A stretch of DNA of 64,000 bases from Bacteroidota bacterium (lineage in GTDB: Bacteria; Bacteroidota; Bacteroidia; UKL13-3), in the NCBI GenBank assembly GCA_037141455.1, contig JBAXCN010000003.1, positions 4,218-68,217 on the forward strand, written 5' to 3'. A model generated the notes under the pieces. The model had not been told where the DNA came from, searched no databases, and saw only the letters and a program-made list of their open reading frames with translations. Positions within the stretch are counted from its first letter, which is position 1; every line of letters starts with the position of its first letter. The translations under genes were made by a program, and so were the position numbers. Positions 2,535 to 64,000 of this stretch are shown here, piece after piece.

Positions 2535-2957
2535 ATGGCAAAAAATAAGACAACTAAAACAGAAAAAGGTGTATTTGATTTTATAAACAAATTTGCTGAT
2601 TCGGAACAAAAACGAATAGATAGTTTAGAGCTATTAAATATAATGCAACAGGTTTCTGGTTATGAACCAAAAATGTGGGGACCATCAATAATTGGCTTTG
2701 GAAATTACCATTACAAATATGAAAGCGGCCACGAAGGTGATGCTCCGCTTATAGGCTTTTCACCGCGCAAAGCAGCTATTTCATTATATATATTTACAGG
2801 TTTAAGTGAGCATATGTATTTACTTGATAATTTTGGTAAATTTAAAATGGGAAAAGCTTGTATTTATATTAAAAAGTTATCAGATATTGATACAAATAGG
2901 TTAGAATTTATTATAACTGAAACCATTAAATATTTAAAAGAAAAATATCCAAAATAA
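2535..2957 (+). CDS. DUF1801 (YdhG-like) domain protein
   Basis: 140 aa. The pattern KMWGPSIIGFGNYHYKYESGHEGDAPLIGFSPRKAAISLY resembles the DUF1801 family. Assigned from memory only. Confidence 0.55.
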   Translation: MAKNKTTKTEKGVFDFINKFADSEQKRIDSLELLNIMQQVSGYEPKMWGPSIIGFGNYHYKYESGHEGDAPLIGFSPRKAAISLYIFTGLSEHMYLLDNFGKFKMGKACIYIKKLSDIDTNRLEFIITETIKYLKEKYPK

Positions 2958-3020
2958 TTAGCCTTAGCCGGTTCGGATTCTGCCCGTTGCTGGTGTTTTA
3001 GCGCAGCGGCACCAACAACA

Positions 3021-3060
3021 ATTCACCGCATTCGTTTGCATCTTGCGAGTGAATGTATTA
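3021..3060. repeat. Inverted partial copy of the GC-rich element that flanks parDE
   Basis: The reverse complement (CATTCACTCGCAAGATGCAAACGAATGCGGTGAAT) aligns with the 3' half of the copies at 3097 and 3798, sharing ACTCGCAAGATGC exactly with the 3798 copy. Confidence 0.45.
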
Positions 3061-3922: not shown

Positions 3923-4945
3923 ATGAACAGAAACCTCACAGATGGTATAAACTTACTTTCCAAATTAAATGGAAAACGAATTTTTAATGCCTTTAAATTA
4001 TACAGTAGTTATTATTTCTCAAAAACTTTAAAAAAACCTATTCAATGGGGAATGCCATTGAGTATGGAAATTGAACCAACTACCAGTTGCAATTTGCGCT
4101 GCCCTCAATGCCCTAGTGGGTTACGCGAATTTACACGCGATACTGGCATGTTGGACTTGAACCTATACAAAAAAATTTTAGATGAAATTCATCCAGAATT
4201 GGTGTGGTTAATTTTGTATTTTCAAGGGGAACCATTTTTAAATAAAAATTTTTTAGAATTTGTAAAATATGCTGCTACTAAAAATGTGTACACAGCTACC
4301 AGCAGCAACGCCCATTATTTTACCGATGAAATGGCAAAAGCTACTGTACAATCGGGGTTGGATAGGTTGATAATTTCGATAGATGGAACTAGCCAAGATA
4401 CTTATGGAAAATACAGAATAGGTGGTAAAATTGAGAAAGTAATTGAAGGCACACAAAATCTATTAAAATGGAAAAAGGAATTAGGTGTTAAAACGCCACA
4501 TATTATTTGGCAGTTTATTGCTTTTAAACACAATGAACACCAAATACCTGAAATAAAAAAATTAGCTAAAGAAATTGGGGTTGATGAATTGGGAATTAAA
4601 ACAGCTCAAATTTACGATTACCAGACAAGTGACGAGTTTATTCCAGAAAACGAAAAACTAAGCAGGTATTCGAAAACCGATGATGGTTATAAAATTAAAA
4701 ATAAATTATTGAACCAATGTTGGCGAATGTGGCGAGGCAGTGTAATAACTTGGGATGGTTTGGTAGTGCCTTGTTGTTTTGATAAAGATGCTACACATAG
4801 ATTTGGAAATGTAAGTAAACAAACCTTTAAAGAAGTTTGGAAAGGCGAGCAATACAATAATTTTAGAAACGCCATTTTAAAAAGCAGAAAAGAAATTGAT
4901 ATATGCACCAACTGCACCGAAGGTACTAAGGTTTGGAGTGAATAG
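3923..4945 (+). CDS. Radical SAM protein with C-terminal SPASM-type Cys cluster
   Basis: CNLRCPQC (CxxxCxxC) at the start of the core domain, and a C-terminal Cys-rich region (CWRMW...PCCFD...CTNC). Confidence 0.8.
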   Translation: MNRNLTDGINLLSKLNGKRIFNAFKLYSSYYFSKTLKKPIQWGMPLSMEIEPTTSCNLRCPQCPSGLREFTRDTGMLDLNLYKKILDEIHPELVWLILYFQGEPFLNKNFLEFVKYAATKNVYTATSSNAHYFTDEMAKATVQSGLDRLIISIDGTSQDTYGKYRIGGKIEKVIEGTQNLLKWKKELGVKTPHIIWQFIAFKHNEHQIPEIKKLAKEIGVDELGIKTAQIYDYQTSDEFIPENEKLSRYSKTDDGYKIKNKLLNQCWRMWRGSVITWDGLVVPCCFDKDATHRFGNVSKQTFKEVWKGEQYNNFRNAILKSRKEIDICTNCTEGTKVWSE

Positions 4946-5014
4946 CGGTTAGTTGATAGCAACGAATTCGTAGAGACGTTGCATGCAACGTCTTAAATTA
5001 TATAGCGGTTAGTT
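4942..5014. repeat. 47-bp insert carrying a perfect 20-bp palindrome, flanked by a 13-bp direct repeat
   Basis: ATAGCGGTTAGTT occurs at 4942-4954 and 5002-5014. The palindrome AGACGTTGCATGCAACGTCT lies at 4974-4993. The first repeat copy overlaps the TAG stop of the radical SAM gene. Confidence 0.65.
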
Positions 5015-5040
5015 TTTGGTTGAAATAAATTACCTAATTT

Positions 5041-5538
5041 TTAATCAATAATATAAACTGTAAAACCAATTGGTAATTGTCCAGGTTTTTTGGGTCTAAT
5101 ACCTTTCATGTTTGGGCCATCTAAATCGGTTATTGATAAATCAATTTCGGTAAAAGTTAAAATACTGCCTTTAGGTAATTTAAATACCGCTTCGTTAAAT
5201 TCTTTACCAAAAATATTTCCTTTTATAGCAAAAGTATTTTTTGTGCCAGCATCTGGCTCTTTTTGGGTTGAGTTGGTTAACAAAATAGAAAAACCTGTTA
5301 AACAATTCTTACGGGCCAAAGGTCCAATTTTAGGAGCTAGAACCAATCTGGGTGATCCTACTTTAAAAAAATTTCTACTTACTTCTATTTTTTTAAATAA
5401 ATCTATTTTTTCAATACCATTGTCTAAATACAAATAATAACCCGCCTTCATTTTGGTTAAAGTTGGGTGTTCCTTTACTTGCTGTGGAATTACTTTAAGG
5501 GTAAAAAAACTTAAAATGATTAATAAAGATGTTTTCAT
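5041..5538 (-). CDS. Hypothetical secreted protein
   Basis: 165-aa ORF with an N-terminal signal-like segment (MKTSLLIILSFFTLKVIPQ). No recognisable motif. The antisense ORF 5090..5437 is judged spurious. Confidence 0.5.
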   Translation of the reverse strand: MKTSLLIILSFFTLKVIPQQVKEHPTLTKMKAGYYLYLDNGIEKIDLFKKIEVSRNFFKVGSPRLVLAPKIGPLARKNCLTGFSILLTNSTQKEPDAGTKNTFAIKGNIFGKEFNEAVFKLPKGSILTFTEIDLSITDLDGPNMKGIRPKKPGQLPIGFTVYIID

Positions 5539-5597
5539 AGTTTAAAATGTAAAATTAAACATTTTTTAAAAATATAATAGTTAAAATTTTCTTATTT

Positions 5598-8054
5598 TTA
5601 AAATCCCATGTCCATATTTTCAATTGGCATATTTTGGTTCGGCTTTTTCTTAGTGAATGGATTTTCATTTCCACCAAAGCGATAGGTTAATGAAAAAGTT
5701 AAAACCCTGCTTTCTCTTTTACGCATTCCATCGTAAGTAAAACCTATACCATCTATTCTAATATTAAATTCTCTGTTATCAAAGACATCGGTAAGGTTTA
5801 AACCAGTTTGTAACTTACCTTTTAAAAAGTCTTTTCTTACTCCAATATCCATCCCATTCATCATACCATAAACAGTGTTTTGTCCATTTCGCATGGGTGC
5901 AGCATACATGCCATTTGCCTGAAAAAAGAATGATTTTGGCAAAGGTAAATTATAGGTAAATCGTACGTTCCAAGTGTTAATTGACGACTGTAAATCGCTT
6001 ACCACATTTGAACCATTTATTTCGTTTTTATACCAGTTTCCACTTAGCATTAAATTGCCTAATTTTTTAAAAGTATATCTTACTATTACTTCTACTCCTG
6101 TATTTTCTGACGAACTAAAATTAAAAAAAGTCAATAAAGATTGACCTGTACTTTGATCAATGGTTCTCAATCGTGAAATTAAATTACTGGTGTAGCGGTA
6201 GTATAATGTAGTACTAAAATTGAGTTTATTTAATTGTGTTAAATAGTTTAACTCGTAGCTTTGAATGTATTCAGGCTGAATGTTAGGGTTTCCTCGTCTA
6301 ATATTTACTGAATCGGCATAATCTGTAAAAGGATTTAAACTTTCAAAACCTGGGCGGTTTATTCGCCTACTAAAACTCGCTTGCAAATCTTGGTTTTTGG
6401 TTAAAGCGTATTTAATAAAACCACTTGGAAAAAAATTATAATAATTGTTATTAAACTTTTTGTTTACAGTTACCGAGTTACCATCAATATCAGTAATTTC
6501 ACTTCTTACACCAAATTGATAATCAAATTTATTGTATTTACTCGCAAAAGTTAAATAGCCTGCATAAACTACTTCATTGTAAATAAACTGATTGCTTATT
6601 AGTGAGTCTTTCCAAAATTCAGATGTACTAAAATTATACCTATTGCCAGTTTGGTTATTTTCTATATTTCTAATAGTAGTTTTTAAACCTGTTTCTATTT
6701 TGCCAAACTTTGATGGATTTATATAATCTACTTGAGTTATAAAATTGGTAAAATTTGAGTTATTAATATTGCGCTGTGCAACCAAGTCGAAATTTGGCGA
6801 ATTGGAGTTTTTATAATTTTCAATGGCTTCTTTTAAAGTAGAACTTATGTTTGCACTTGCCGTTAATTCTTTTTTTGAATTACTAAATGTTTTTTTATAA
6901 TCAGCAGTTGCATCAAAAGTTAAATTATAATCAGTCGAAAAATTATTTCTTTCAAATACGCTTGAAGGATTTAAAATACTATCGAAATAACTAAATTTAA
7001 TGGCATCGGGTTTGTTTGAAATATTGCTACTTATTCCAGATGAAAAACTGATTGTATTTTGGTTATTTATATAATAATCAATTCCAATTCTGCCAGTGTT
7101 AAAATCGTTTAAATTATAGCCATCATTAGTACTTTTAAACGAAAAACTGTTGCTGTCAAAATCATTGAATTGATCTCCTCTCCCAAAGCTATTTCTTCTT
7201 TCGTGCCTAAACGAATAATTTCCATATAAATTATATTTACTGGTTCGGTTGTTTATACCAAAGTTTAGTGAATATTTATCGTTTGTTCCAATAGTTGATT
7301 GTACATTTCCATTAAAACCTTTCATTTTATCTTTTTTAGTTTTAATATTTATAATTCCTGCCATTCCATCTGCATCGTATTTTGCTGAAGGATTTGTAAT
7401 TACTTCCACTTCACTTATTGCACCAGCTGGCAATTGCTGTAAAATGGCCTGCCTATTTGCCCCGCTTAATGTACTTGGTTTTCCGTCAATTAATACAGTT
7501 ACATTTTCACTTCCTCTCAAACTTATTTTTCCATCCAAATCTACATTTACCGAAGGAATATTTTGTAAAATATCGGTTGCTGAACCACCCACATTGGTTA
7601 TGTTTTTGCCTACTGCGTATGTTTTTTTATCAAGCTGATTTGAAAAATCATTTCTTTCTCCATTTATTTCAATAGTATTTAAATTTTTTAAATTAGGCAC
7701 CATTTTTAATTTACCCAAATCAACTACTAAATCTTTTGCTGTTAAATCGAAACTATTGGAATAAATTGTTTGGTAGCCAATAAAGCGAGCTTTTAACTTA
7801 TAGCTTCCAAAAGGCAAGTTTTCTAATTTTATTTCACCTTTTTTGGTGGTTGTTGTCCCAGTAATTAAGGTTGAGTCTTTTGCTTTTAATAATGAAACAG
7901 TAACATATTCAACTGGCTTGTTAGTTTTACTATCAATAAATGCAGCTAAAACAGTGGCTGGACCTACACTTGTATTAGGTTTAAAGGTGGGTTGCGCAAA
8001 ATTATTTTTTAATAAAATAAAAAGTAAAAAAGTAAAAAGGAGTGTTTTTTTCAA
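5598..8054 (-). CDS. TonB-dependent receptor / outer-membrane beta-barrel family protein
   Basis: Signal peptide, CarboxypepD_reg-like N-terminal domain (KPVEYVTVSLL...GSYKLKARFIGYQ), plug-like segment (LRGSENVTVLIDGKP), a long beta-rich region and a terminal F. Confidence 0.8.
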   Translation of the reverse strand: MKKTLLFTFLLFILLKNNFAQPTFKPNTSVGPATVLAAFIDSKTNKPVEYVTVSLLKAKDSTLITGTTTTKKGEIKLENLPFGSYKLKARFIGYQTIYSNSFDLTAKDLVVDLGKLKMVPNLKNLNTIEINGERNDFSNQLDKKTYAVGKNITNVGGSATDILQNIPSVNVDLDGKISLRGSENVTVLIDGKPSTLSGANRQAILQQLPAGAISEVEVITNPSAKYDADGMAGIINIKTKKDKMKGFNGNVQSTIGTNDKYSLNFGINNRTSKYNLYGNYSFRHERRNSFGRGDQFNDFDSNSFSFKSTNDGYNLNDFNTGRIGIDYYINNQNTISFSSGISSNISNKPDAIKFSYFDSILNPSSVFERNNFSTDYNLTFDATADYKKTFSNSKKELTASANISSTLKEAIENYKNSNSPNFDLVAQRNINNSNFTNFITQVDYINPSKFGKIETGLKTTIRNIENNQTGNRYNFSTSEFWKDSLISNQFIYNEVVYAGYLTFASKYNKFDYQFGVRSEITDIDGNSVTVNKKFNNNYYNFFPSGFIKYALTKNQDLQASFSRRINRPGFESLNPFTDYADSVNIRRGNPNIQPEYIQSYELNYLTQLNKLNFSTTLYYRYTSNLISRLRTIDQSTGQSLLTFFNFSSSENTGVEVIVRYTFKKLGNLMLSGNWYKNEINGSNVVSDLQSSINTWNVRFTYNLPLPKSFFFQANGMYAAPMRNGQNTVYGMMNGMDIGVRKDFLKGKLQTGLNLTDVFDNREFNIRIDGIGFTYDGMRKRESRVLTFSLTYRFGGNENPFTKKKPNQNMPIENMDMGF

Positions 8055-56303: not shown

Positions 56304-57983
56304 CTAGGCGTATTTTCTTTTTCTATAAAAATTATTTGCTATGGCAAAAATTAAAATTAAAATTATTGGTAAGCCAATATTTATAAATTGCCAAAATAGC
56401 TTTTCTCTTTTTATTTTGGCTTTATCGAGCAAACGTAAGGTTACTTCTTTGCTACGTACTTCTATTATTCCACTGTCGTCACATAAATAATCAACGCAGT
56501 TTAATAGAAACCTTTTATTGCCAAATTGTTGGTTTGCATAACGGTCGTAACCCAAAGGAAAAACTTGTCCTTTACTTTGGCTATACTGATTTCTAATTAC
56601 ATCTCCATCCGATATAATTATCATTTTATTATTTTCAACTTTAGGTTTAAAATCTAATTCCGGATTTTTAGTTTTATCGAAAATAAATTCAAAGCTCGAT
56701 GAAAATTCACCTTCCAATAATATGGCCATTGTTTTATTTCCACCGGTTCTAAAAAGGTTTTCATCAGGTTCTAACCTTGCCAATTCAATATCTACCCTGG
56801 CTGGAGCAGGAACTACTCGCGAGTAAGGAGAGGAAGCCAACAAAATGGTTTTCTTTATTTTTTTACTAGGAATGGTGTCAATGCTCGATGCAAATTGAAA
56901 CCAAATAGGATCAACCCCTCGAACAATTGGGTGCGAACTGGTTGGCGGAACAACAGGAAAATACATCCAAGGCAACAGCTTTTGCTCAGGTGTACCGTTT
57001 TTCATACCACTTAAAACGGGTATAGAATTACACATTAAATCTTGCACAATATTATTGTTAATTCTTACCCCAAACTTGTAAAATAAATCTTCAATTCCTA
57101 AGTTATAACTAATGGAATAATACTGTGGCGAATTGCGCAAACTATCCATATCGGCCAATTGCGATTCTACTAGCCAAATAATTTTACCTCCATGCATAAC
57201 ATATTGGTCGAGTTTAAATTTATCAAAATCGGAAAATGGCAAAGTAGGTTTTGGCACTATTACACCTGTATATTCAAACAAGGTATTTGGCGGAATTACC
57301 GATAAATCAATGTCATCAATTTCATAATATTGCTTCAGTTCTGCTTTCCCATCTATAATATTCCATTTTTCAAGCTCTCCGTTTCCTTTTAAAAATGCCA
57401 ATCGCTTTACTTCTGTTTGAGTTACTTTTCTCAAAGCATTAGCTATTTCGTACTCCAGTTGTTCTATTGAAGTATTTATAACAGCTTCGGGTGCTTGCCC
57501 AAACTGACTTTTTAATAAATTAATCGGAATTTTTCTGTCGCCATAATACAAAACTGCTCCAGGCACAATTATTTTTTGACTAAAACCATCTTCTTTTTTT
57601 AATTGAATGTTGGTAGCCTGTAAACCTAAATCGCTTAACTCCTGCAGTATTTCGTTGCTTTGCTTTGCAGTAGTATTGGTTAATGGATCAATAAACTCGT
57701 ACTGTATATTGTTGTTCGAATAAATTTTAAATTCGTCTAACATTTCTTTAGTAGCCTTTTGCAAACGCTTGAAACCAGCAGGAAAATCTCCTTCTAAATA
57801 TACTTTAACTAAAATACCTTCTTTTACTTTTGCAGCTAATTTTTTGCTTGGTTCTGCTAGGGTATATCGTTTTTCTTTAGTTAAATCTATCCTAAAAAAA
57901 TAATTACTTAAAATGGCATTTAACAAAATAATTATTACAATGGCAATTATTAACTGCAAATACGATTGATTCTTTTTGTTCAT
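56304..57983 (-). CDS. gldG: GldG-type ABC transporter auxiliary component
   Basis: 559 aa with N- and C-terminal TM anchors around a large external domain. Immediately downstream of the gldF-like permease. Confidence 0.75.
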   Translation of the reverse strand: MNKKNQSYLQLIIAIVIIILLNAILSNYFFRIDLTKEKRYTLAEPSKKLAAKVKEGILVKVYLEGDFPAGFKRLQKATKEMLDEFKIYSNNNIQYEFIDPLTNTTAKQSNEILQELSDLGLQATNIQLKKEDGFSQKIIVPGAVLYYGDRKIPINLLKSQFGQAPEAVINTSIEQLEYEIANALRKVTQTEVKRLAFLKGNGELEKWNIIDGKAELKQYYEIDDIDLSVIPPNTLFEYTGVIVPKPTLPFSDFDKFKLDQYVMHGGKIIWLVESQLADMDSLRNSPQYYSISYNLGIEDLFYKFGVRINNNIVQDLMCNSIPVLSGMKNGTPEQKLLPWMYFPVVPPTSSHPIVRGVDPIWFQFASSIDTIPSKKIKKTILLASSPYSRVVPAPARVDIELARLEPDENLFRTGGNKTMAILLEGEFSSSFEFIFDKTKNPELDFKPKVENNKMIIISDGDVIRNQYSQSKGQVFPLGYDRYANQQFGNKRFLLNCVDYLCDDSGIIEVRSKEVTLRLLDKAKIKREKLFWQFINIGLPIILILIFAIANNFYRKRKYA

Positions 57984-58001
57984 ATCAGTTATAATTACAA
58001 A

Positions 58002-58730
58002 TTAAAATTTACGTGAGCTAAAAACAGTTTTTGTGGCATAAATAAACACAACAATAAAACTTATAAAATACAATACATCTCGGCTATCAATTACCCCTCT
58101 ACTTATACTTTGGTAATGTGCATTAATGCCCAGGCCAGCTACTAAACTATCCCAAGAACCAAAAAGTTTAAAATCGGCAATGAGTTCGAATAAATTATAG
58201 AACAGATAACATAAAATCATACTGAGAATAAACGATACAATTTGGTTATCGGTAATTACCGATGAAAATAAACCTATGCTTACAAAACAACTAGCTAAAA
58301 AGAACAATCCAATATATGAACCCCAAGTTGCCCCAACGTCAATATTTCCGGCTGGTGCACCTAGCTTATATACCGTATAAAAATAAATTAAACTTGGTAT
58401 TAAAGCAAACAAAACTAATATAACACCTGCAAAATATTTGGCTAAAATTATGTTTAAATCGCTTACTGGTTTGGTGGTTAGTATTTCTATGGTTCCATTC
58501 TTTTTTTCTTCACTAAAAGTACGCATGGTAATAGCAGATATAAGGAATAAAAATAACCAAGGTGCCAAAGTAAAAAGTGTATCTAAATTAGCATAATTCA
58601 TGTCGAATACATTGTTATCGGGCAGCACCCACATAAACAATCCTGTTGCTATTAAAAACACTATAATTACCACATAGGCTATTAATGAGCTAAGAAAACT
58701 GCGTATTTCTTTTTGAAGTATTGAGTACAT
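58002..58730 (-). CDS. gldF: GldF-type ABC-2 permease
   Basis: 242 aa with about 6 TM segments and gene order with gldG. Confidence 0.75.
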   Translation of the reverse strand: MYSILQKEIRSFLSSLIAYVVIIVFLIATGLFMWVLPDNNVFDMNYANLDTLFTLAPWLFLFLISAITMRTFSEEKKNGTIEILTTKPVSDLNIILAKYFAGVILVLFALIPSLIYFYTVYKLGAPAGNIDVGATWGSYIGLFFLASCFVSIGLFSSVITDNQIVSFILSMILCYLFYNLFELIADFKLFGSWDSLVAGLGINAHYQSISRGVIDSRDVLYFISFIVVFIYATKTVFSSRKF

Positions 58731-58784
58731 TTATTTGATAGTTTTAAGTGCTAGGTTTTAAGTTGTTAGTTTAAAAATTTGTGT

Positions 58785-59588
58785 TTAAAAAATAAATTTT
58801 ATTCCGAACATTTGGCTTCTACTATTTACAGTTTCTGGAACTCCTAATGCTTGATTTCTAATATTTAATTGAATACCAAAGTTAGATTTTGTTAAAACAC
58901 CTAAACCCAATTCGAAGTAAAAATTACTTTTCAAATTATAAATATCATAATCAATTTTATCGTTTTTACTATTTTTATAACTTCCGCTTATGGGTATTGT
59001 AAAACCATAATCGAAGTTTAAGAAAATAAACTTTTCTAAATAAAAATTATTATTTAAAAAAACTGGCATTTGAATAACTTCAATATTTGAACCTCCTTTA
59101 TTTATATATTCTATACCCGAACCTATACCAAAATCAAATTTTCGGTATTGGTTTAGTACAAATGCATATTGAGCTGAAAATAAATATAAATTACCCGAAA
59201 ACGAAAATCCAATTTTAGGATTTGCATTAAATGCTAGTTGTTTTAATTTTATAATAGAATCTGTTTTTATATACCATTCATTTGCTTCTTCTTCAGCTAA
59301 AATATAATTTTGATTTTGACATATTTTATTTATTTCTTTTTCTCTTTTTTCTAAAAGCAAAAAAGTTTTTTCTAATAACTTATCTATTGAATCAGGTACA
59401 ATTGCATCAAAATTAGAATCATTAGCGCCATATTTTTTATAAATATTTTTCACAACACTTTGCAACGCAATATATGTTGAATCGTATTTAAGCATATTTG
59501 CTTTCATACTATTTTGGGCATTAACATTTAATATGCCAACTACAAAAAATAATACAATTACTATATTTATAATTTTAAATTTCTTCAT
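58785..59588 (-). CDS. Hypothetical outer-membrane beta-barrel-like protein inserted between gldA and gldF
   Basis: Signal peptide, helical K/E-rich N-terminal half, beta-rich C-terminal half ending ...FGIKFIF. Confidence 0.5.
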   Translation of the reverse strand: MKKFKIINIVIVLFFVVGILNVNAQNSMKANMLKYDSTYIALQSVVKNIYKKYGANDSNFDAIVPDSIDKLLEKTFLLLEKREKEINKICQNQNYILAEEEANEWYIKTDSIIKLKQLAFNANPKIGFSFSGNLYLFSAQYAFVLNQYRKFDFGIGSGIEYINKGGSNIEVIQMPVFLNNNFYLEKFIFLNFDYGFTIPISGSYKNSKNDKIDYDIYNLKSNFYFELGLGVLTKSNFGIQLNIRNQALGVPETVNSRSQMFGIKFIF

Positions 59589-59604
59589 AATTCAACAATT
59601 ACAA

Positions 59605-60504
59605 TTACCTCGTTAACCTTTGAAATACTTCTTCCAACGAGCTTTCTTCTAAATTCATACTTAATACCAACCAATTATTTTCGGCCGCTTTTTGTGCAAT
59701 TTTTTCTCTTATGTCTGCTTTCGCGGTAATTGTAAAACCTTCTTTTGTAGCAACTATATTTAAGTTTTTATCGATGGTTTTGAGGTTTTCAATAGTTGGA
59801 CTATTTTTAAATTGAACCGAAATAATATATTCTTTGCTAAACGACTGTTGTAAATTTTCAATTTTATCGTCAGCTACAATTTTACCTTTATTTATAATCA
59901 CAACTCTGCTGCACATGGCCTCTACTTCTTGCATTATATGACTCGACAGAATTACCGTTTTATCTTTTCCTATATCTTTTATTAAATTTCTAATTTCTGT
60001 AACTTGGTTTGGATCCAAACCACTGGTTGGTTCATCTAAAATTAATACACTTGGGTTATGAATCATTGCTGCTGCTAAGCCAACCCGCTGTTTGTATCCT
60101 TTGCTTAACTGATTAATTTTCTTTTTGCGTTCCAAACTCAAACCTGTTTTAGAAATCATTTCTTCTGCAGCTTGATTTGCTCCCTCTTTTATTCCGTAGC
60201 TATTGGCAATAAATAGCAAATATTCCTTTATATACATATCGGTATAAAGGGGATTTAATTCGGGTAAATAACCTACTTCTTTTCTAATATGTATGCTGTT
60301 TTCGTTTATTTCAGTTTCATTTATAAATGCTTTTCCACTTGTTGCTGGAATATAACCAGTTAATATTTTCATGGTGGTAGATTTTCCCGCACCATTTGGT
60401 CCTAAAAATCCTAATATTTCGCCTTTTTGCGCTTCAAAACTAATGCTGTTTAAAGCTTTTTGGCTGCCATATATTTTGGTTAAGTTTTCTACTTTTATCG
60501 ACAT
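59605..60504 (-). CDS. gldA: GldA-type ABC transporter ATP-binding protein
   Basis: GPNGAGKST Walker A, LSKGYKQRV signature and LILDEPTSGLD Walker B. Confidence 0.8.
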   Translation of the reverse strand: MSIKVENLTKIYGSQKALNSISFEAQKGEILGFLGPNGAGKSTTMKILTGYIPATSGKAFINETEINENSIHIRKEVGYLPELNPLYTDMYIKEYLLFIANSYGIKEGANQAAEEMISKTGLSLERKKKINQLSKGYKQRVGLAAAMIHNPSVLILDEPTSGLDPNQVTEIRNLIKDIGKDKTVILSSHIMQEVEAMCSRVVIINKGKIVADDKIENLQQSFSKEYIISVQFKNSPTIENLKTIDKNLNIVATKEGFTITAKADIREKIAQKAAENNWLVLSMNLEESSLEEVFQRLTR

Positions 60505-60560
60505 GTTTGCGTATTACAAAGGTCAGCGAAAATAAGAAAAAGGTTGGTTTCATTTACAAT

Positions 60561-60597
60561 AAAAAAAGCCTCTTATTTTTAAAAAGAGGCTTTTTTT
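60561..60597. terminator. Terminator downstream of the PfkB kinase gene
   Basis: AAAAAAAGCCTCTT-9 nt-AAGAGGCTTTTTTT. Confidence 0.8.
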
Positions 60598-60621
60598 AAG
60601 TTATATTAATAAAAAAAATTA

Positions 60622-61536
60622 CTAAATAGTAAAACTCGAAAGTTTTTTAAACTCTGCTACGCGTGCATTTAATTCAGTATCGGTTAAATCAACCAATCGC
60701 TCAGTTCCAAATTTTTCAACACAAAAGCTAGCCATAGCCGAACCATAAATTACAGCATTTTTCATGTTGTCAAAACTTAAATCGTTTGTTTTGGCTAAAT
60801 AACCAATAAAACCTCCAGCAAAAGTATCACCCGCTCCAGTTGGGTCAAAAACTTCTTCTAAAGGCAATGCAGGTGCATAAAACATTTCTTTGCCATGAAA
60901 TAACAAAGCGCCATGTTCCCCTTTTTTAATAATTAAAAATTTAGGACCCATAGTTTGTATTTTAGCCGCAGCTTTTACCAACGAATATTCTCCAGAAAGT
61001 TGACGAGCTTCTTCATCGTTTATGGTTAATACATCTACCATTTTTAAAGTTTCCTTTAAATCGTCCATTGCTATTTCCATCCAAAAATTCATTGTGTCAA
61101 GTACAATTAATTTAGGGCGGTTGGTTAAACGTTCAATTACCGTTTGTTGAATTTTGGGAGTTAAATTTCCTAACATTAAATACTCGCAGTTTTGGTAACT
61201 AGCAGGAATTATTGGATCAAAATTACCCAATACATTTAATTCAGTAACTAAAGTATCGCGGCTATTCATATCGTTGTGGTATTTACCACTCCAAAAAAAC
61301 GATTTTTCACCAGCTTTAACTTGCAAACCTTCAGTGTTTACACCATTTACATTTAAATGATTGACAAACTCTTGAGGGAAATCATCGCCTACAACGGCAA
61401 CTAAATTTACACTTTTTGTAAAATACGAAGAACACAACGCAATGTAAGAAGCAGCACCTCCTACAATTTTATCTGTCTTTCCAAATGGGGTTTCTATGGC
61501 ATCAAAAGCAACCGAACCAACAACTAATAAACTCAT
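60622..61536 (-). CDS. PfkB-family carbohydrate/nucleoside kinase
   Basis: DPTGAGDTFAGGF motif and GAxxN-type N-terminal motif. Confidence 0.85.
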   Translation of the reverse strand: MSLLVVGSVAFDAIETPFGKTDKIVGGAASYIALCSSYFTKSVNLVAVVGDDFPQEFVNHLNVNGVNTEGLQVKAGEKSFFWSGKYHNDMNSRDTLVTELNVLGNFDPIIPASYQNCEYLMLGNLTPKIQQTVIERLTNRPKLIVLDTMNFWMEIAMDDLKETLKMVDVLTINDEEARQLSGEYSLVKAAAKIQTMGPKFLIIKKGEHGALLFHGKEMFYAPALPLEEVFDPTGAGDTFAGGFIGYLAKTNDLSFDNMKNAVIYGSAMASFCVEKFGTERLVDLTDTELNARVAEFKKLSSFTI

Positions 61537-61654
61537 AAATAATATATTAAACTTTTTTTAATTTTTTTTCGGTGCAAATATTGTATTTTTAATTATCAAT
61601 TCCTATCATTGCACCCTCGTTAAAGGAAAATAATTTAACGAAACATGGTAACAT

Positions 61655-61728
61655 TCCTTGGTAGCTCAGCTGGTTAGAGCACATGACTGTTAATCATGGG
61701 GTCGCTGGTTCGAGTCCAGCCCAGGGAG
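61655..61728 (+). tRNA. tRNA-Asn (anticodon GTT)
   Basis: Manual fold: acceptor TCCTTGG/CCAGGGA, anticodon stem CATGA/TCATG with loop CTGTTAA, T-arm GCTGGTTCGAGTCCAGC. Confidence 0.9.
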
Positions 61729-61763
61729 CAAAAGCCAATCGTAAATTACGGTTGGCTTTTTTT
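61724..61763 (+). repeat. 40-bp direct repeat, copy 1 (tRNA-Asn 3' end plus its terminator)
   Basis: GGGAGCAAAAGCCAATCGTAAATTACGGTTGGCTTTTTTT, identical to 62538-62577. It contains the terminator hairpin GCCAATCGTA/TACGGTTGGC. Confidence 0.95.
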
Positions 61764-61783
61764 GTTTATAGAATTATTTTTTT

Positions 61784-61800
61784 GTTTTCTATTAGAAAAC
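61784..61800. promoter_or_regulatory. Candidate higBA operator palindrome
   Basis: GTTTTCT-ATT-AGAAAAC, 16 nt upstream of the higB start. Confidence 0.35.
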
Positions 61801-61815
61801 ATTTAATTTTGAAAA

Positions 61816-62127
61816 GTGTTCAATATCATCACCAGAAGAACTTTATTAGCTTATGCCGAAAAATATCCATTAGCTGCTAATGCGCTGTATGAGTGGTATT
61901 ATGAATTGGTAAAATCGGATTTTGAAAACTTCAACGTCTTAAAATTTGTTTATGGTTCTGCTAGTTTGGCCGGAGATGATAGGATTGTTTTCAATATTAT
62001 GGGAAATAAGTTTAGGCTTGTGGTTCGTATTGTTTTTGAATATAAAGCCATACAAATTAAGTGGTTTGGAACACACAAGGAATACGATAAAATAAATGTA
62101 TCAACTATTCAAAATAAAATAAAATAA
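61816..62127 (+). CDS. higB: Type II toxin HigB (mRNA interferase)
   Basis: 103 aa, GTG start. The pattern ...DFENFNVLKFVYGSASLAGDDRIVFNIMGNKFRLVVRIVFEYKAIQIKWFGTHKEYDKI is typical of the HigB family. Confidence 0.85.
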   Translation: MFNIITRRTLLAYAEKYPLAANALYEWYYELVKSDFENFNVLKFVYGSASLAGDDRIVFNIMGNKFRLVVRIVFEYKAIQIKWFGTHKEYDKINVSTIQNKIK

Positions 62128-62483
62128 TGGAACTATCTGTAATAAAAAATAAAACTCAATACGAAGCATACCTGAAATGGGTAGATGAAATGTTTGATAA
62201 AAAGATATTACCAAATTCAACAAATGGAAAAAAAATTGAAGTGGCTTTGTTACTTATTAAACAATATGAAGATGCTCATTTCTCTATCCCTTATCCTGAC
62301 CCTCTTGAAACTATCAAACTAAAAATGACTGAGCTTGGATTAAAAAACAAAGACTTGGTTGGTAAATTTGGTAGTAAGGGTTATGTCTCCTCTCTGTTAA
62401 GTGGTAGAAAACCATTAACACTTGAATTGGCAAGACTTTTTCATCAGGAATTACACATTCCCGCTGAAGTTTTTTTTGCTTAA
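62127..62483 (+). CDS. higA: HigA-type antitoxin with C-terminal HTH
   Basis: TAATG overlap with higB. C-terminal HTH-like LGLKNKDLVGKFGSKGYVSSLLSGRKPLTLELARLF. Confidence 0.8.
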   Translation: MELSVIKNKTQYEAYLKWVDEMFDKKILPNSTNGKKIEVALLLIKQYEDAHFSIPYPDPLETIKLKMTELGLKNKDLVGKFGSKGYVSSLLSGRKPLTLELARLFHQELHIPAEVFFA

Positions 62484-62498
62484 ATTGAATAATTCATA

Positions 62499-62537
62499 CT
62501 CAATTGACTCGTTTTGCTTGCATCTTTTGTCAATGAG
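62499..62537 (+). other. Bulged hairpin abutting the right-hand repeat copy
   Basis: CTCAATTGAC-20 nt-GTCAATGAG (9 bp with one bulged A), ending exactly where the 40-bp repeat begins. Confidence 0.4.
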
Positions 62538-62577
62538 GGGAGCAAAAGCCAATCGTAAATTACGGTTGGCTTTTTTT
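62538..62577 (+). repeat. 40-bp direct repeat, copy 2
   Basis: Identical to 61724-61763 and offset by 814 bp. Confidence 0.95.
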
Positions 62578-62699
62578 ATAAATGTTTAACTTTTACATTA
62601 TTCTCTAAAATTAGATATTTTATATTGGATCGACTGATAATACCGAAAGCATATCTGTATTAGTCCAATCACGCCTTGCATGATGTCCTAAACAGCTAT

Positions 62700-62960
62700 T
62701 GCATCGGCATTGTACCAACAAAATTTGGTCTAAAATACAAATAACTTTTGTATAATTTTGATTTTAGAATTATTCAGCATAACTCAGCTTTATATTAAGT
62801 TGTGTTCACATCTAATGGGATTCCTTGGGATTTATTTCTTTAAATTGAATATAATAACAATGCTCAAGCTTATCATATTGAAAAGCAAATCAAAAAAAAG
62901 AAGTCGGAAATTTATTCAAAATTTTTAACCGAATTTATATCGAGAATCCATACTTGTTTA
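62700..62960 (+). pseudogene. Decayed GIY-YIG (UPF0213-like) nuclease gene
   Basis: One frame reads ...LLYNFDFRIIQHNSALY*VVFTSNGIPWDLFL*IEYNNNAQAYHIEKQIKKKKSEIYSKFL. This matches the family pattern R..QHN...T...PW.L.Y.E.....A...E..IKK but carries in-frame stops at 62742, 62796 and 62841. Confidence 0.45.
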
Positions 62961-63167
62961 TTCTTTTACTTCACTTAATCCTCAATCTTAAGCAGCAGTT
63001 GATCTTTAAGATTATTTCCAAACTCATAGTGTGTTTATTCGAAAATCGTTGAATAATGTCTCGACTCCGTTCGACATGACCCGTGTCTTTGCTCGACATG
63101 ACCTATGACTCTACTTAAAATGTACGATAATTCTACTTGGATGATTTACAAATAAACACAGTGCCAT

Positions 63168-63220
63168 AAAACAGAAAGTGGCCATCTTTTTGAGACAGCC
63201 ACTTTCTGTTTTATTTTTTT
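63168..63220. terminator. Terminator downstream of mdh
   Basis: AACAGAAAGTGGC-15 nt-GCCACTTTCTGTT flanked by A- and T-runs. Confidence 0.75.
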
Positions 63221-63231
63221 AAAACTAAGTA

Positions 63232-64000
63232 TTACAAAACACCAATTTCACTTAAAACAGTATTCATCGCTCTAACTGCATCTGCACTTTTTGCAAATTC
63301 AGTTTTTTCACCATCTGTTAAGTGGTAATCAACTATTGTTTCCCATCCGTTTTTGCCTATAGTAACTGGAACACCTAAGCAAATATCTTTTTGGCCATAG
63401 TCGCCATCTAAATAAACACAACAAGGCATTACACGTTTTTGGTCACGAACAATGCTTTCAACCAATAATGCACTTGCAGCACCTGGTGCATACCAAGCCG
63501 AAGTTCCTAATAATTTGGTTAAAGTAGCACCACCCACCATAGTTGCATCGCTAATTTCTTTTAATTGTTCGGCACTTAAAGTATTTGAAACAGGCACACC
63601 GTTTAAAGTTGCCAATCGAGTTAAAGGAATCATGGTGGTATCTCCATGTCCACCAATTACAGTTCCTTGTATATCGGCAGTAGGTTGGTTTAAAGCCAAA
63701 CCTAAATAGCCTTTAAAACGAGCGCTATCTAATAAACCACCCATACCAATAATTCTGTTTTTTGGTAAGCCAGTCGATTTTAAAGCCAAGTATGTCATGG
63801 TATCCATAGGGTTTGATACTACAACTATAATTGCATTGGGCGAATGTTTTAATACATTTTCAGCAACAGTTTTTACTATATTGGCATTGGTGCCAATTAA
63901 TTCTTCACGCGTCATACCTGGTTTACGTGGAATACCAGAGGTTATTACTACTACATCCGAATTGGCTGTTTTGCTGTAATCGTTGGTAGTTCCGCTTATG
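63232..64000 (-). CDS. mdh: Malate dehydrogenase (LDH-like family); 5' end lies outside the window
   Basis: ITSGIPRKPGMTREEL, VVSNPMD and GGHGDTMIP motifs. The reading frame stays open to position 64000, upstream of the track's internal Met. Confidence 0.9.
   Translation of the reverse strand, partial: ISGTTNDYSKTANSDVVVITSGIPRKPGMTREELIGTNANIVKTVAENVLKHSPNAIIVVVSNPMDTMTYLALKSTGLPKNRIIGMGGLLDSARFKGYLGLALNQPTADIQGTVIGGHGDTTMIPLTRLATLNGVPVSNTLSAEQLKEISDATMVGGATLTKLLGTSAWYAPGAASALLVESIVRDQKRVMPCCVYLDGDYGQKDICLGVPVTIGKNGWETIVDYHLTDGEKTEFAKSADAVRAMNTVLSEIGVL

Follow-up and report, generated by a model that had tools for sequence, protein, structure and literature searches.

A toxin-antitoxin operon in a strain-variable slot behind tRNA-Asn of a freshwater Bacteroidota bacterium

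The DNA studied here, referred to as the window, comprises 64,000 nucleotides (nt) of contig JBAXCN010000003.1 (assembly GCA_037141455.1) from an uncultured freshwater Bacteroidota bacterium, whose best species representative has 91 % PfkB identity. Behind an intact tRNA-Asn gene the window carries a higB-higA toxin-antitoxin (TA) operon, higBA, set between two copies of a 40-bp direct repeat. TA modules are known to pass between genomes. The entry route of a lone TA operon of ~0.8 kb without a recombinase is seldom traceable; here one species shows the same slot with different contents. This slot extends from the tRNA terminator to the second copy of "tRNA tip + terminator", and its contents vary from strain to strain within the species. 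Positions are collected in Table 1, and L numbers denote the contigs and loci compared.

The repeated 40-mer, GGGAGCAAAAGCCAATCGTAAATTACGGTTGGCTTTTTTT, consists of the last 5-6 nt of the tRNA (tip GGGAGC) and a strong terminator hairpin (61730-61760; -17.5 kcal/mol, z = -5.5). It has exactly two copies in the window, without a mismatch between them, and no such pair is expected by chance (100 shuffles). The 774 bp separating the copies hold higB, higA and a palindrome. ARAGORN, Rfam, a repeat search and PF09907 thus bear out the layout proposed by an earlier, sequence-only reading of this DNA. In the sister species (L107/L108; PfkB 92 % identical at the amino acid (aa) level) the same tRNA is followed by a single, identical 40-mer, then by a decayed GIY-YIG gene and different neighbours, and higBA is absent; the terminator is therefore the tRNA's own. 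The higBA/repeat structure recurs in independent ENA, JGI and NCBI assemblies (L001, L002, L007), which excludes the assembly artefact that the sequence-only reading had allowed for.

Table 1. Features of the tRNA-Asn locus in the window
Feature	Positions	Strand	Remarks
pfkB-family sugar kinase gene, left neighbour of tRNA-Asn	60622-61536	-	PF00294, E = 5e-36
tRNA-Asn(GTT), intact	61655-61729	+	ARAGORN; Rfam tRNA model 61655-61728, 68.7 bits
Repeat copy 1, GGGAGC + native terminator A	61724-61763	+	identical single 40-mer in sister species
Left flank of slot; probable remnant (leader and start) of a GIY-YIG gene since replaced, degraded	61764-61783	+	
Putative higBA promoter/operator	61781-61811	+	TTTG, palindrome GTTTTCTATTAGAAAAC 61784-61800, TAATTTTG 61804-61811
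higB toxin gene, 103 aa, GTG start	61816-62127	+	
higA antitoxin gene, 118 aa	62127-62483	+	start codon overlaps higB stop by 1 nt
Conserved end motif (..TTCATACTCAATTGACTCGTTTTGCTTGCATCTTTTGTCAATGAGGGGAGC), ~55 nt	62491-62543	+	sequence conservation downstream of higA
Repeat copy 2, GGGAGC + terminator A, presumed end of the higBA transcription unit	62538-62577	+	L010 breakpoint exactly 62538
GIY-YIG pseudogene, older resident cassette, stop at codon 9 + frameshifts	62582-~62930	+	
22-nt tandem repeat (TCGACATGACC...), two units	63071-63114	+	repeat family D9
Terminator hairpin of convergent mdh	63166-63214	.	inverted repeat I3
mdh, runs leftward	ends 63232		Pfam Ldh_1_N + Ldh_1_C

Contents of the slot across strains

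Strain alleles were drawn from contigs encoding an identical PfkB or HigA protein. In allele a (the window, L001, L002/L009 and L007) higBA stands between two perfect 40-mers. Allele b (L003, L006, L011) has one difference in each 40-mer and a premature stop in higB, and the cassette appears to be decaying in these strains; the stop is a GAA to TAA change that leaves 74 aa, with higA intact (L003:2197-2505; L006:209-517; L011). Allele c (L013, L015) carries a higBA 95-97 % identical; terminator A precedes it, and GGGAGT with another terminator, B, follows it. Allele d (L014) is without higBA: the tRNA is followed directly by terminator B, which there is the tRNA's terminator, and then by a GyrI-like gene, and identity to the window ends at 61733, the end of the tRNA. 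Allele e (L010) has an intact GIY-YIG cassette in place of higBA. In allele f (L004 and L005, two samples) a diverged end motif and a degenerate terminator lie ahead of higBA, which points to a tandem array.

The replacement in L010 is sharply bounded. Identity between this contig and the window is 98.8 % over 56713-61792 and 99.1 % over 62538-64000, and 302 bp with a GIY-YIG gene and a tRNA-like remnant replace the window's 745-bp higBA segment. The GIY-YIG gene is intact (94 aa, PF01541) and has the same two repeat copies on its sides; 3' of it the sequence reads GCTGGTTCGA-[CCCCGATAGCTATCGGGG]-CAGCCCAGGGAGC, followed by the terminator.

Cassettes also occur in series. In L101 the order is tRNA, a lipoprotein-like cassette, the higBA cassette and a GIY-type remnant; the AGGGGAGC motif closes both cassettes and GGGAGC closes the remnant, with a hairpin after each. 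A 596-nt metagenome contig, L008, reads higA, end motif, 40-mer, left flank and start of higB, and may represent a tandem duplication, the junction of a circle or a mis-join across the 40-bp repeat. In L098 and L015 the terminator left of the same higBA cassette is unrelated to the one on its right. On the left of tRNA-Asn, L013, L014 and L015 share ~98-100 % identity with the window; on its right, through mdh, they share ~78-94 %. A drop in identity exactly at the tRNA is consistent with breaks or crossovers there, and tRNA-Asn appears to mark a recombination breakpoint between diverged lineages.

Right of the slot, the DNA at 62578-63231 had been read as possible further remains of a deleted island. 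It proves to consist of a GIY-YIG pseudogene, 22-nt repeats and the mdh terminator. The stretch 62754-62906 is 51 % identical over 51 aa to the L010 GIY-YIG protein (tblastn), and the 5' end of the pseudogene is better preserved in L015. Since L010 has this pseudogene too and no higBA, the pseudogene is not the remainder of a higBA island. The 22-nt repeat varies in copy number between strains, with at least 6 tandem units in L013/L015 (upstream of mdh, reverse strand), and forms a hypervariable block between the pseudogene and mdh; similar elements (CTCGAC.. or CCTGAGCG..GAAGG) precede other tRNA-end remnants in L025, L040 and L078.

As for the wider surroundings, gliding-type ABC transporter genes lie left of the slot besides pfkB, and the pfkB/tRNA-Asn arrangement is kept in ~50 of 80 fetched loci of related species. 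L001 and L002 reach past the window, where mdh is followed by a gene for a 4424-aa protein. The tRNA-Glu and tRNA-Met genes of the window have neither duplications nor cassettes.

The higBA cassette and its spread between lineages

HigB matches PF09907 (E = 5e-25, 88 bits against a cut-off of 27) and, over its full length, the E. coli HigB structures 5ifg/5ycl (E = 2e-8), and its length is identical in L098, L099, L101 and L109. HigA, for which no Pfam or NCBIfam match was found, matches E. coli HigA (5ifg_B) with E = 2e-3 over the helix-turn-helix (HTH) region, residues 55-109; it has 1782 homologues, and the named ones, including its closest database relatives, are called HigA. Its homology gives moderate support for an HTH antitoxin related to HigA. 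By these matches higB-higA is predicted to be a toxin-first type II TA operon, HigBA, and as such the module itself is ordinary.

The palindrome before higBA, already pointed out in the sequence-only reading, is perfect over 17 bp. It belongs to a TTTG-palindrome-TAnnTTTG block that precedes higB in each of the ten lineages under comparison, some of which have small base changes in the palindrome; farther upstream the sequence differs between these lineages. The promoter-like block may be a Bacteroidetes -33/-7 promoter. HigA would repress higBA at the palindrome, and HigB, a predicted mRNA interferase, would keep the cassette from being lost easily. The TAATTTTG box, which is conserved, ends 4 nt before the higB start codon (GTG here, ATG in other lineages), and because this distance is so short the higB mRNA may be leaderless or nearly so.

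At its other end the cassette closes with the motif GCATNTTTNGTCNNNNAGGGGAG, finishing in AGGGGAGC, which follows higBA in the window, L003, L004, L013/L015, L098 and L101, while the terminator after it varies by lineage. In L101 the same kind of motif closes the unrelated cassette, whose lipoprotein-like open reading frame (ORF) is ~190 aa long. Every complete cassette or remnant end examined shows GGGAGC (GGGAGT in L013/L015) plus a hairpin; the higBA operons of L099 and L109 are without this end. The motif itself has no conserved hairpin and no covarying pair in the related cassettes, and its folding energy is not unusual. The bulged hairpin proposed earlier at 62499-62537 does not hold up: its z score is -1.6, 13 of 200 shuffled sequences fold as well, and it is not kept in related cassettes.

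The origin of the end motif may be a tRNA. Its similarity to the host's tRNA-Asn is not significant (p = 0.2-0.9; 0.06-0.5 in a re-test). A collinear alignment with a Pedobacter-type tRNA-Asn, covering its D arm and anticodon arm, is of borderline significance (p = 0.007-0.03, uncorrected; 0.008-0.03 for 4 of 6 variants, with 18 tests in all). A pseudo-tRNA-Asn minus its T-arm is a possible description, offered as a lead rather than a result. No Rfam family covers the end motif, the palindrome or the tRNA remnants; only true tRNAs scored. Viral contigs in IMG/VR gave 0 matches to the end motif; the whole cassette had no match in a phage collection and a single 49-bp match, inside an Empedobacter higB, in a plasmid collection.

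Between lineages higBA is more alike than its neighbour. Compared with L098, the window has nucleotide identities of 71.5 % in pfkB (77 % aa), 85 % in higB, 86 % in higA and 84 % in the end motif; compared with L023, 75 % in pfkB and 88 % in higB. As higBA is closer than pfkB across lineages and is absent from the sister species and from a conspecific strain, these comparisons indicate that it was acquired horizontally. They show it travelling, as far as conservation tells, with its own putative promoter/operator and the ~55-nt end motif. The operon is linked to tRNA-Asn in 6 of the 8 lineages examined, including Imperialibacter (L109-L111), where the chromosomal neighbourhood is different. 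In Imperialibacter L109 (2136-2400) a degenerate second tRNA-Asn with the same terminator lies ~80 bp downstream of the first, upstream of higBA; the related contig L110 (950-1060) has one tRNA-Asn copy only, so the duplication of the tRNA end varies between relatives. The earlier idea of a mobile TA module therefore stands in that higBA moves between lineages and varies within the species; what falls is that the repeat arose from higBA's own insertion.

The tRNA-Asn flank appears, from its gene content, to be a general variable or defence hot spot. In other species (L020-L093) genes for AbiEii, TIR, SEFIR and N6-methylase proteins lie up to 6 kb downstream of tRNA-Asn, and in L030 a 3.8-kb cargo sits between two intact tRNA-Asn copies.

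GIY-YIG genes at tRNAs and the origin of the slot

Genes for small (~94-aa) GIY-YIG proteins follow a tRNA in many Bacteroidota; that of L120 precedes its tRNA. Examples at tRNA-Asn are L097 (~4610-5087, reverse strand), L051, L034 (two tandem units; ~4900-5739, reverse strand), L025, L099, L117 (1630-2350) and L120 (1930-2370), together with one at tRNA-Leu, L115 (1800-2400); the L010 gene described above lies at 2585-3027. Partial tRNA copies flank the GIY-YIG genes, and in these copies the palindrome CCCGATAGCTATCGGG or a variant of it takes the place of a loop or stem: the D-loop, the anticodon arm or the T-loop has given way to (C)CCGATAGCTATCGG(G), which is conserved. In L097, L034, L115 and L117 the tRNA end and terminator duplicated alongside agree with those of the host itself.

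This association also appears in loci that were fetched independently of higBA and GIY-YIG. All seven GIY-YIG matches there (six pfkB-centred species loci and strain L010) lie within 1 kb downstream of tRNA-Asn. Of 6 loci with a GIY-YIG gene, 4 have an additional copy of the tRNA end or of the terminator, as against 4 of 44 loci without such a gene (p = 0.004). We found no description of the GIY-YIG/tRNA/palindrome arrangement in Bacteroidota in the literature. The set of GIY-YIG gene, pseudo-tRNA and palindrome may be an undescribed selfish element, and it may be more novel than the higBA setting, which is a new variant of known tRNA-linked islets.

The junctions of the slot indicate an order of events. 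In an alignment of four sequences (the window, L007, L010 and L120), the window, L007 and L010 agree at the left junction through the terminator, GTTTATAGAAATTAT and ATGTTTTGT; the L007 counterpart of 61764-61783 reads GTTTATAGAAATTATATGTTTTGT. After ATGTTTTGT the window and L007 continue with the higBA promoter and L010 with the remaining GIY-YIG ORF. The 9 nt of ATGTTTTGT are the start of the GIY-YIG ORF, and the unrelated GIY-YIG gene of L120 begins alike. At the right junction the window and L010 diverge immediately upstream of GGGAGC. Because the GIY-YIG start is kept at the left junction, the duplication is most likely older than higBA, and a GIY-YIG unit with the duplicated tRNA end and terminator most likely held the slot before it. 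With the same repeat pair around the GIY-YIG gene in L010 and a GIY-YIG start left of higBA, the repeat is the edge of the slot and not a scar of higBA. This removes the earlier explanation of the repeat as the attL/attR scar of the higBA insertion, against which the unrelated terminators that flank the cassette elsewhere and the duplications that accompany GIY-YIG genes in many Bacteroidota also speak. The perfect identity of the two copies had furthermore been taken as a sign of a recent event. The tRNA-adjacent copy is 40/40 identical in the sister species despite a pfkB region of only 84.6 % identity, so the 40-mer changes slowly or is exchanged. At ~1 % strain divergence, less than one difference is expected in 40 bp, and other strains do have diverged copies.

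With moderate confidence we favour the reading that the locus is a slot in a tRNA-anchored cassette array without a recombinase of its own, in which the repeats would come from a GIY-YIG-associated duplication and higBA would be acquired cargo. A small GIY-YIG element would have duplicated the 3' part of the tRNA together with the terminator, a step proposed since such elements accompany these duplications at tRNA-Asn and tRNA-Leu across Bacteroidota. Arriving horizontally, higBA would then have replaced the body of the GIY-YIG gene, with the right join at the tRNA-tip GGGAGC plus terminator and the left join at a TTTTGT microhomology inside the GIY-YIG start. Host recombination would have joined the ends (recA lies in the window), possibly stimulated by breaks made in trans by a GIY-YIG nuclease. 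At present, copy 1 would terminate the tRNA transcript and copy 2 that of higBA; the two 40-bp copies would offer homology for allele exchange, tandem duplication or deletion, and HigBA would resist loss by addiction.

Several observations weigh against this reading. A strictly empty site, which the sequence-only reading had proposed to look for at orthologous tRNA-Asn loci, was not found: the pattern CAGCCCAGGGAGC-N25-45-ATAAATGTTTAAC had 0 matches in JGI metagenomes, and a second scan for the tRNA end plus terminator returned the sister-species locus only. The direction of replacement between GIY-YIG and higBA is read from the 9-nt remnant. The GIY-YIG copy at the window locus is a pseudogene, and a nuclease role here is a prediction. 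A stretch of 6-7 bp is too short for RecA-mediated recombination. The recurrent sharp junction at GGGAGC and the end motif on unrelated cargo look more like a dedicated recombination site. The left terminator, too, is lineage-variable, so that a conserved second arm is lacking on both sides of the cassette, and no simple model fully explains these variable arms.

A rival reading makes the locus a decayed integrative island, resembling the cis-mobilizable elements (CIMEs) discussed below. An island with an integrase would have entered the 3' end of tRNA-Asn by a crossover within GGGAGC, later deletions from the tRNA side would have taken out integrase and cargo but spared the addictive higBA beside attR, the 55-nt end motif would be the attR arm, and the arrays would stem from repeated integration beside the tRNA. 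We consider this unlikely. In its favour, the repeat takes in the tRNA tip, the GGGAGC core is about as long as the overlap region of a tyrosine recombinase, an unrelated cassette shares the end motif, and tandem arrays exist. The right end is conserved and the left boundary is variable (20 nt in the window, ~100 in L098/L023, ~45-200 in L099/L101), a pattern that a deletion series from one side would produce. The concept of CIMEs and accretion is established (PMC5704250). The search for a recombinase nevertheless came back empty. The sequence-only reading had noted none in the module, and we saw no integrase between the repeats or, in L001/L002, in the sequence right of the window. The ten integrase-sized ORFs of the window are all housekeeping genes by Pfam, recA among them. 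A crude motif screen found the tyrosine-recombinase HxLRH[ST] box in no ORF of ~115 related tRNA-Asn loci (~1.1 Mb), and Phage_integrase had fewer than two members among 69 downstream ORFs of relatives (top 25 of 102 families; a single member is possible). The viral, plasmid and phage searches reported above also count against an island, as do the GIY-YIG start at the left junction and the identical repeats around the GIY-YIG gene of L010, and the identity of the copies runs 34 bp past the tRNA into a clade-native terminator. Recombination at the tRNA tip, possibly nuclease-stimulated, is favoured over a decayed integrase island.

It is improbable that the cassette is still an active minimal element, an 814-bp circle that excises and re-inserts at "GGGAGC + hairpin" by a recombinase supplied in trans, resembling integron cassettes or single-strand hairpin-recognising systems. 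The order higA, 40-mer, higB in L008 is the junction expected of a circle or of a tandem duplicate, the shared cassette ends (L099 and L109 apart) would fit, and higBA cassettes are known as integron cargo, as cited in PMC2654758. L008 could, however, be a mis-join over the repeat or a simple unequal-crossover duplicate; the end motif is without a conserved hairpin or covariation; the would-be other half of the circle junction differs between lineages; the operon brings a promoter of its own, and an intI-like gene was not seen; and the broken higB and diverged repeats of some strains suggest decay. Two specific models were rejected for want of a conserved left end and of an attC-like structure. 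For an integron cassette we found no attC-like imperfect palindrome and no recombinase or intI, and higBA has its own promoter-like block; for a non-autonomous IS200/IS605-type element the left end and terminator are lineage-variable and the right-end hairpin is not conserved.

An old vertical arrangement, in which a tandem tRNA-Asn pair with higBA between its members lost its downstream copy to decay and was kept alike by gene conversion with no mobility at all, is equally hard to credit: tandem tRNA-Asn pairs are common in relatives (L037, L038, L045-L048, L057, L060), L030 holds cargo between two such copies and the end motif is weakly tRNA-like, but the distribution is patchy, with both the sister species and a 99 %-identical strain lacking higBA, higBA is more alike across lineages than pfkB, the end motif is closer to another lineage's tRNA-Asn than to the host's, similarity leaps from weak to 100 % exactly at GGGAGC, and unrelated terminators flank the cassette in other lineages.

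Extended beyond this locus, the favoured reading becomes tentative. Bacteroidota may have an integrase-free cassette route in which GIY-YIG elements make pads of "tRNA tip + terminator" where AGGGGAGC-ended cargo is swapped. The ~94-aa elements would insert beside tRNA-Asn or tRNA-Leu, duplicating part of the host tRNA and the terminator; the dead tRNA copy would be marked by the CCCGATAGCTATCGGG palindrome; and unrelated cargo, such as higBA or the lipoprotein gene, would be captured and spread between lineages.

Comparison with known systems

The operon resembles E. coli K-12 HigB-HigA (5ifg, 5ycl) in its toxin family, toxin-first order and HTH antitoxin. It differs in its low similarity to both proteins (the E-values given above), in an antitoxin of 118 rather than 138 aa, and in that function is predicted here.

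The Vibrio cholerae superintegron contains higBA cassettes (Christensen-Dalsgaard and Gerdes 2006, as cited in PMC2654758). The two settings share a single small higBA cassette in an array, a conserved 3' element and the same kind of end on unrelated cargo. Unlike the superintegron, the present locus shows no intI, attI or attC-like palindrome, the operon has its own promoter, the array is anchored at a tRNA and a terminator ends each cassette.

CIMEs are decayed integrative elements that keep attL and attR, have lost their integrase and often stand in tandem at tRNA 3' ends (PMC5704250). The small size, the repeats that include the tRNA end, the lack of an integrase, tandem accretion and a surviving, stabilising TA module are all alike here. 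Unlike in CIMEs, no integrase-bearing parent element was found at the site in ~115 loci, the repeat extends 34 bp into the clade-native terminator, the left cassette boundary is not conserved and, in another strain of the species, a GIY-YIG gene lies between the same repeats. A direct repeat of a tRNA end thus does not by itself prove integrase-mediated insertion.

The phage nuclease SegB is a tRNA-associated GIY-YIG nuclease that co-converts neighbouring DNA and drives segmental amplification through microhomology of a tRNA gene with the 3' end of segB (PMC13096335). The Bacteroidota locus has a comparable shape, a GIY-YIG gene at a polymorphic site beside a conserved tRNA, as a pseudogene in the window and intact in L010. 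In common with free-standing GIY-YIG homing endonucleases at tRNA genes such as T4/T6 SegB (PMC2330249, PMC13096335) are the GIY-YIG gene beside a tRNA, sequence resembling a tRNA at the nuclease gene's 3' end, tandem units of tRNA part and nuclease (L034), sharp-edged presence/absence alleles and co-conversion of neighbouring DNA. Unlike SegB, the bacterial proteins are ~94 aa long, with a catalytic domain and no DNA-binding domain; they are chromosomal, and their activity is a prediction. The pseudo-tRNA copies carry a conserved palindrome, and higBA is cargo of the slot rather than the nuclease gene. The boundaries of the slot are tied to the tRNA-end duplications that accompany small GIY-YIG genes. 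If the nuclease makes breaks, the system would parallel, on the chromosome, the SegB/tRNA system of phages and offer an integrase-free way to build small variable or defence hot spots at tRNA genes.

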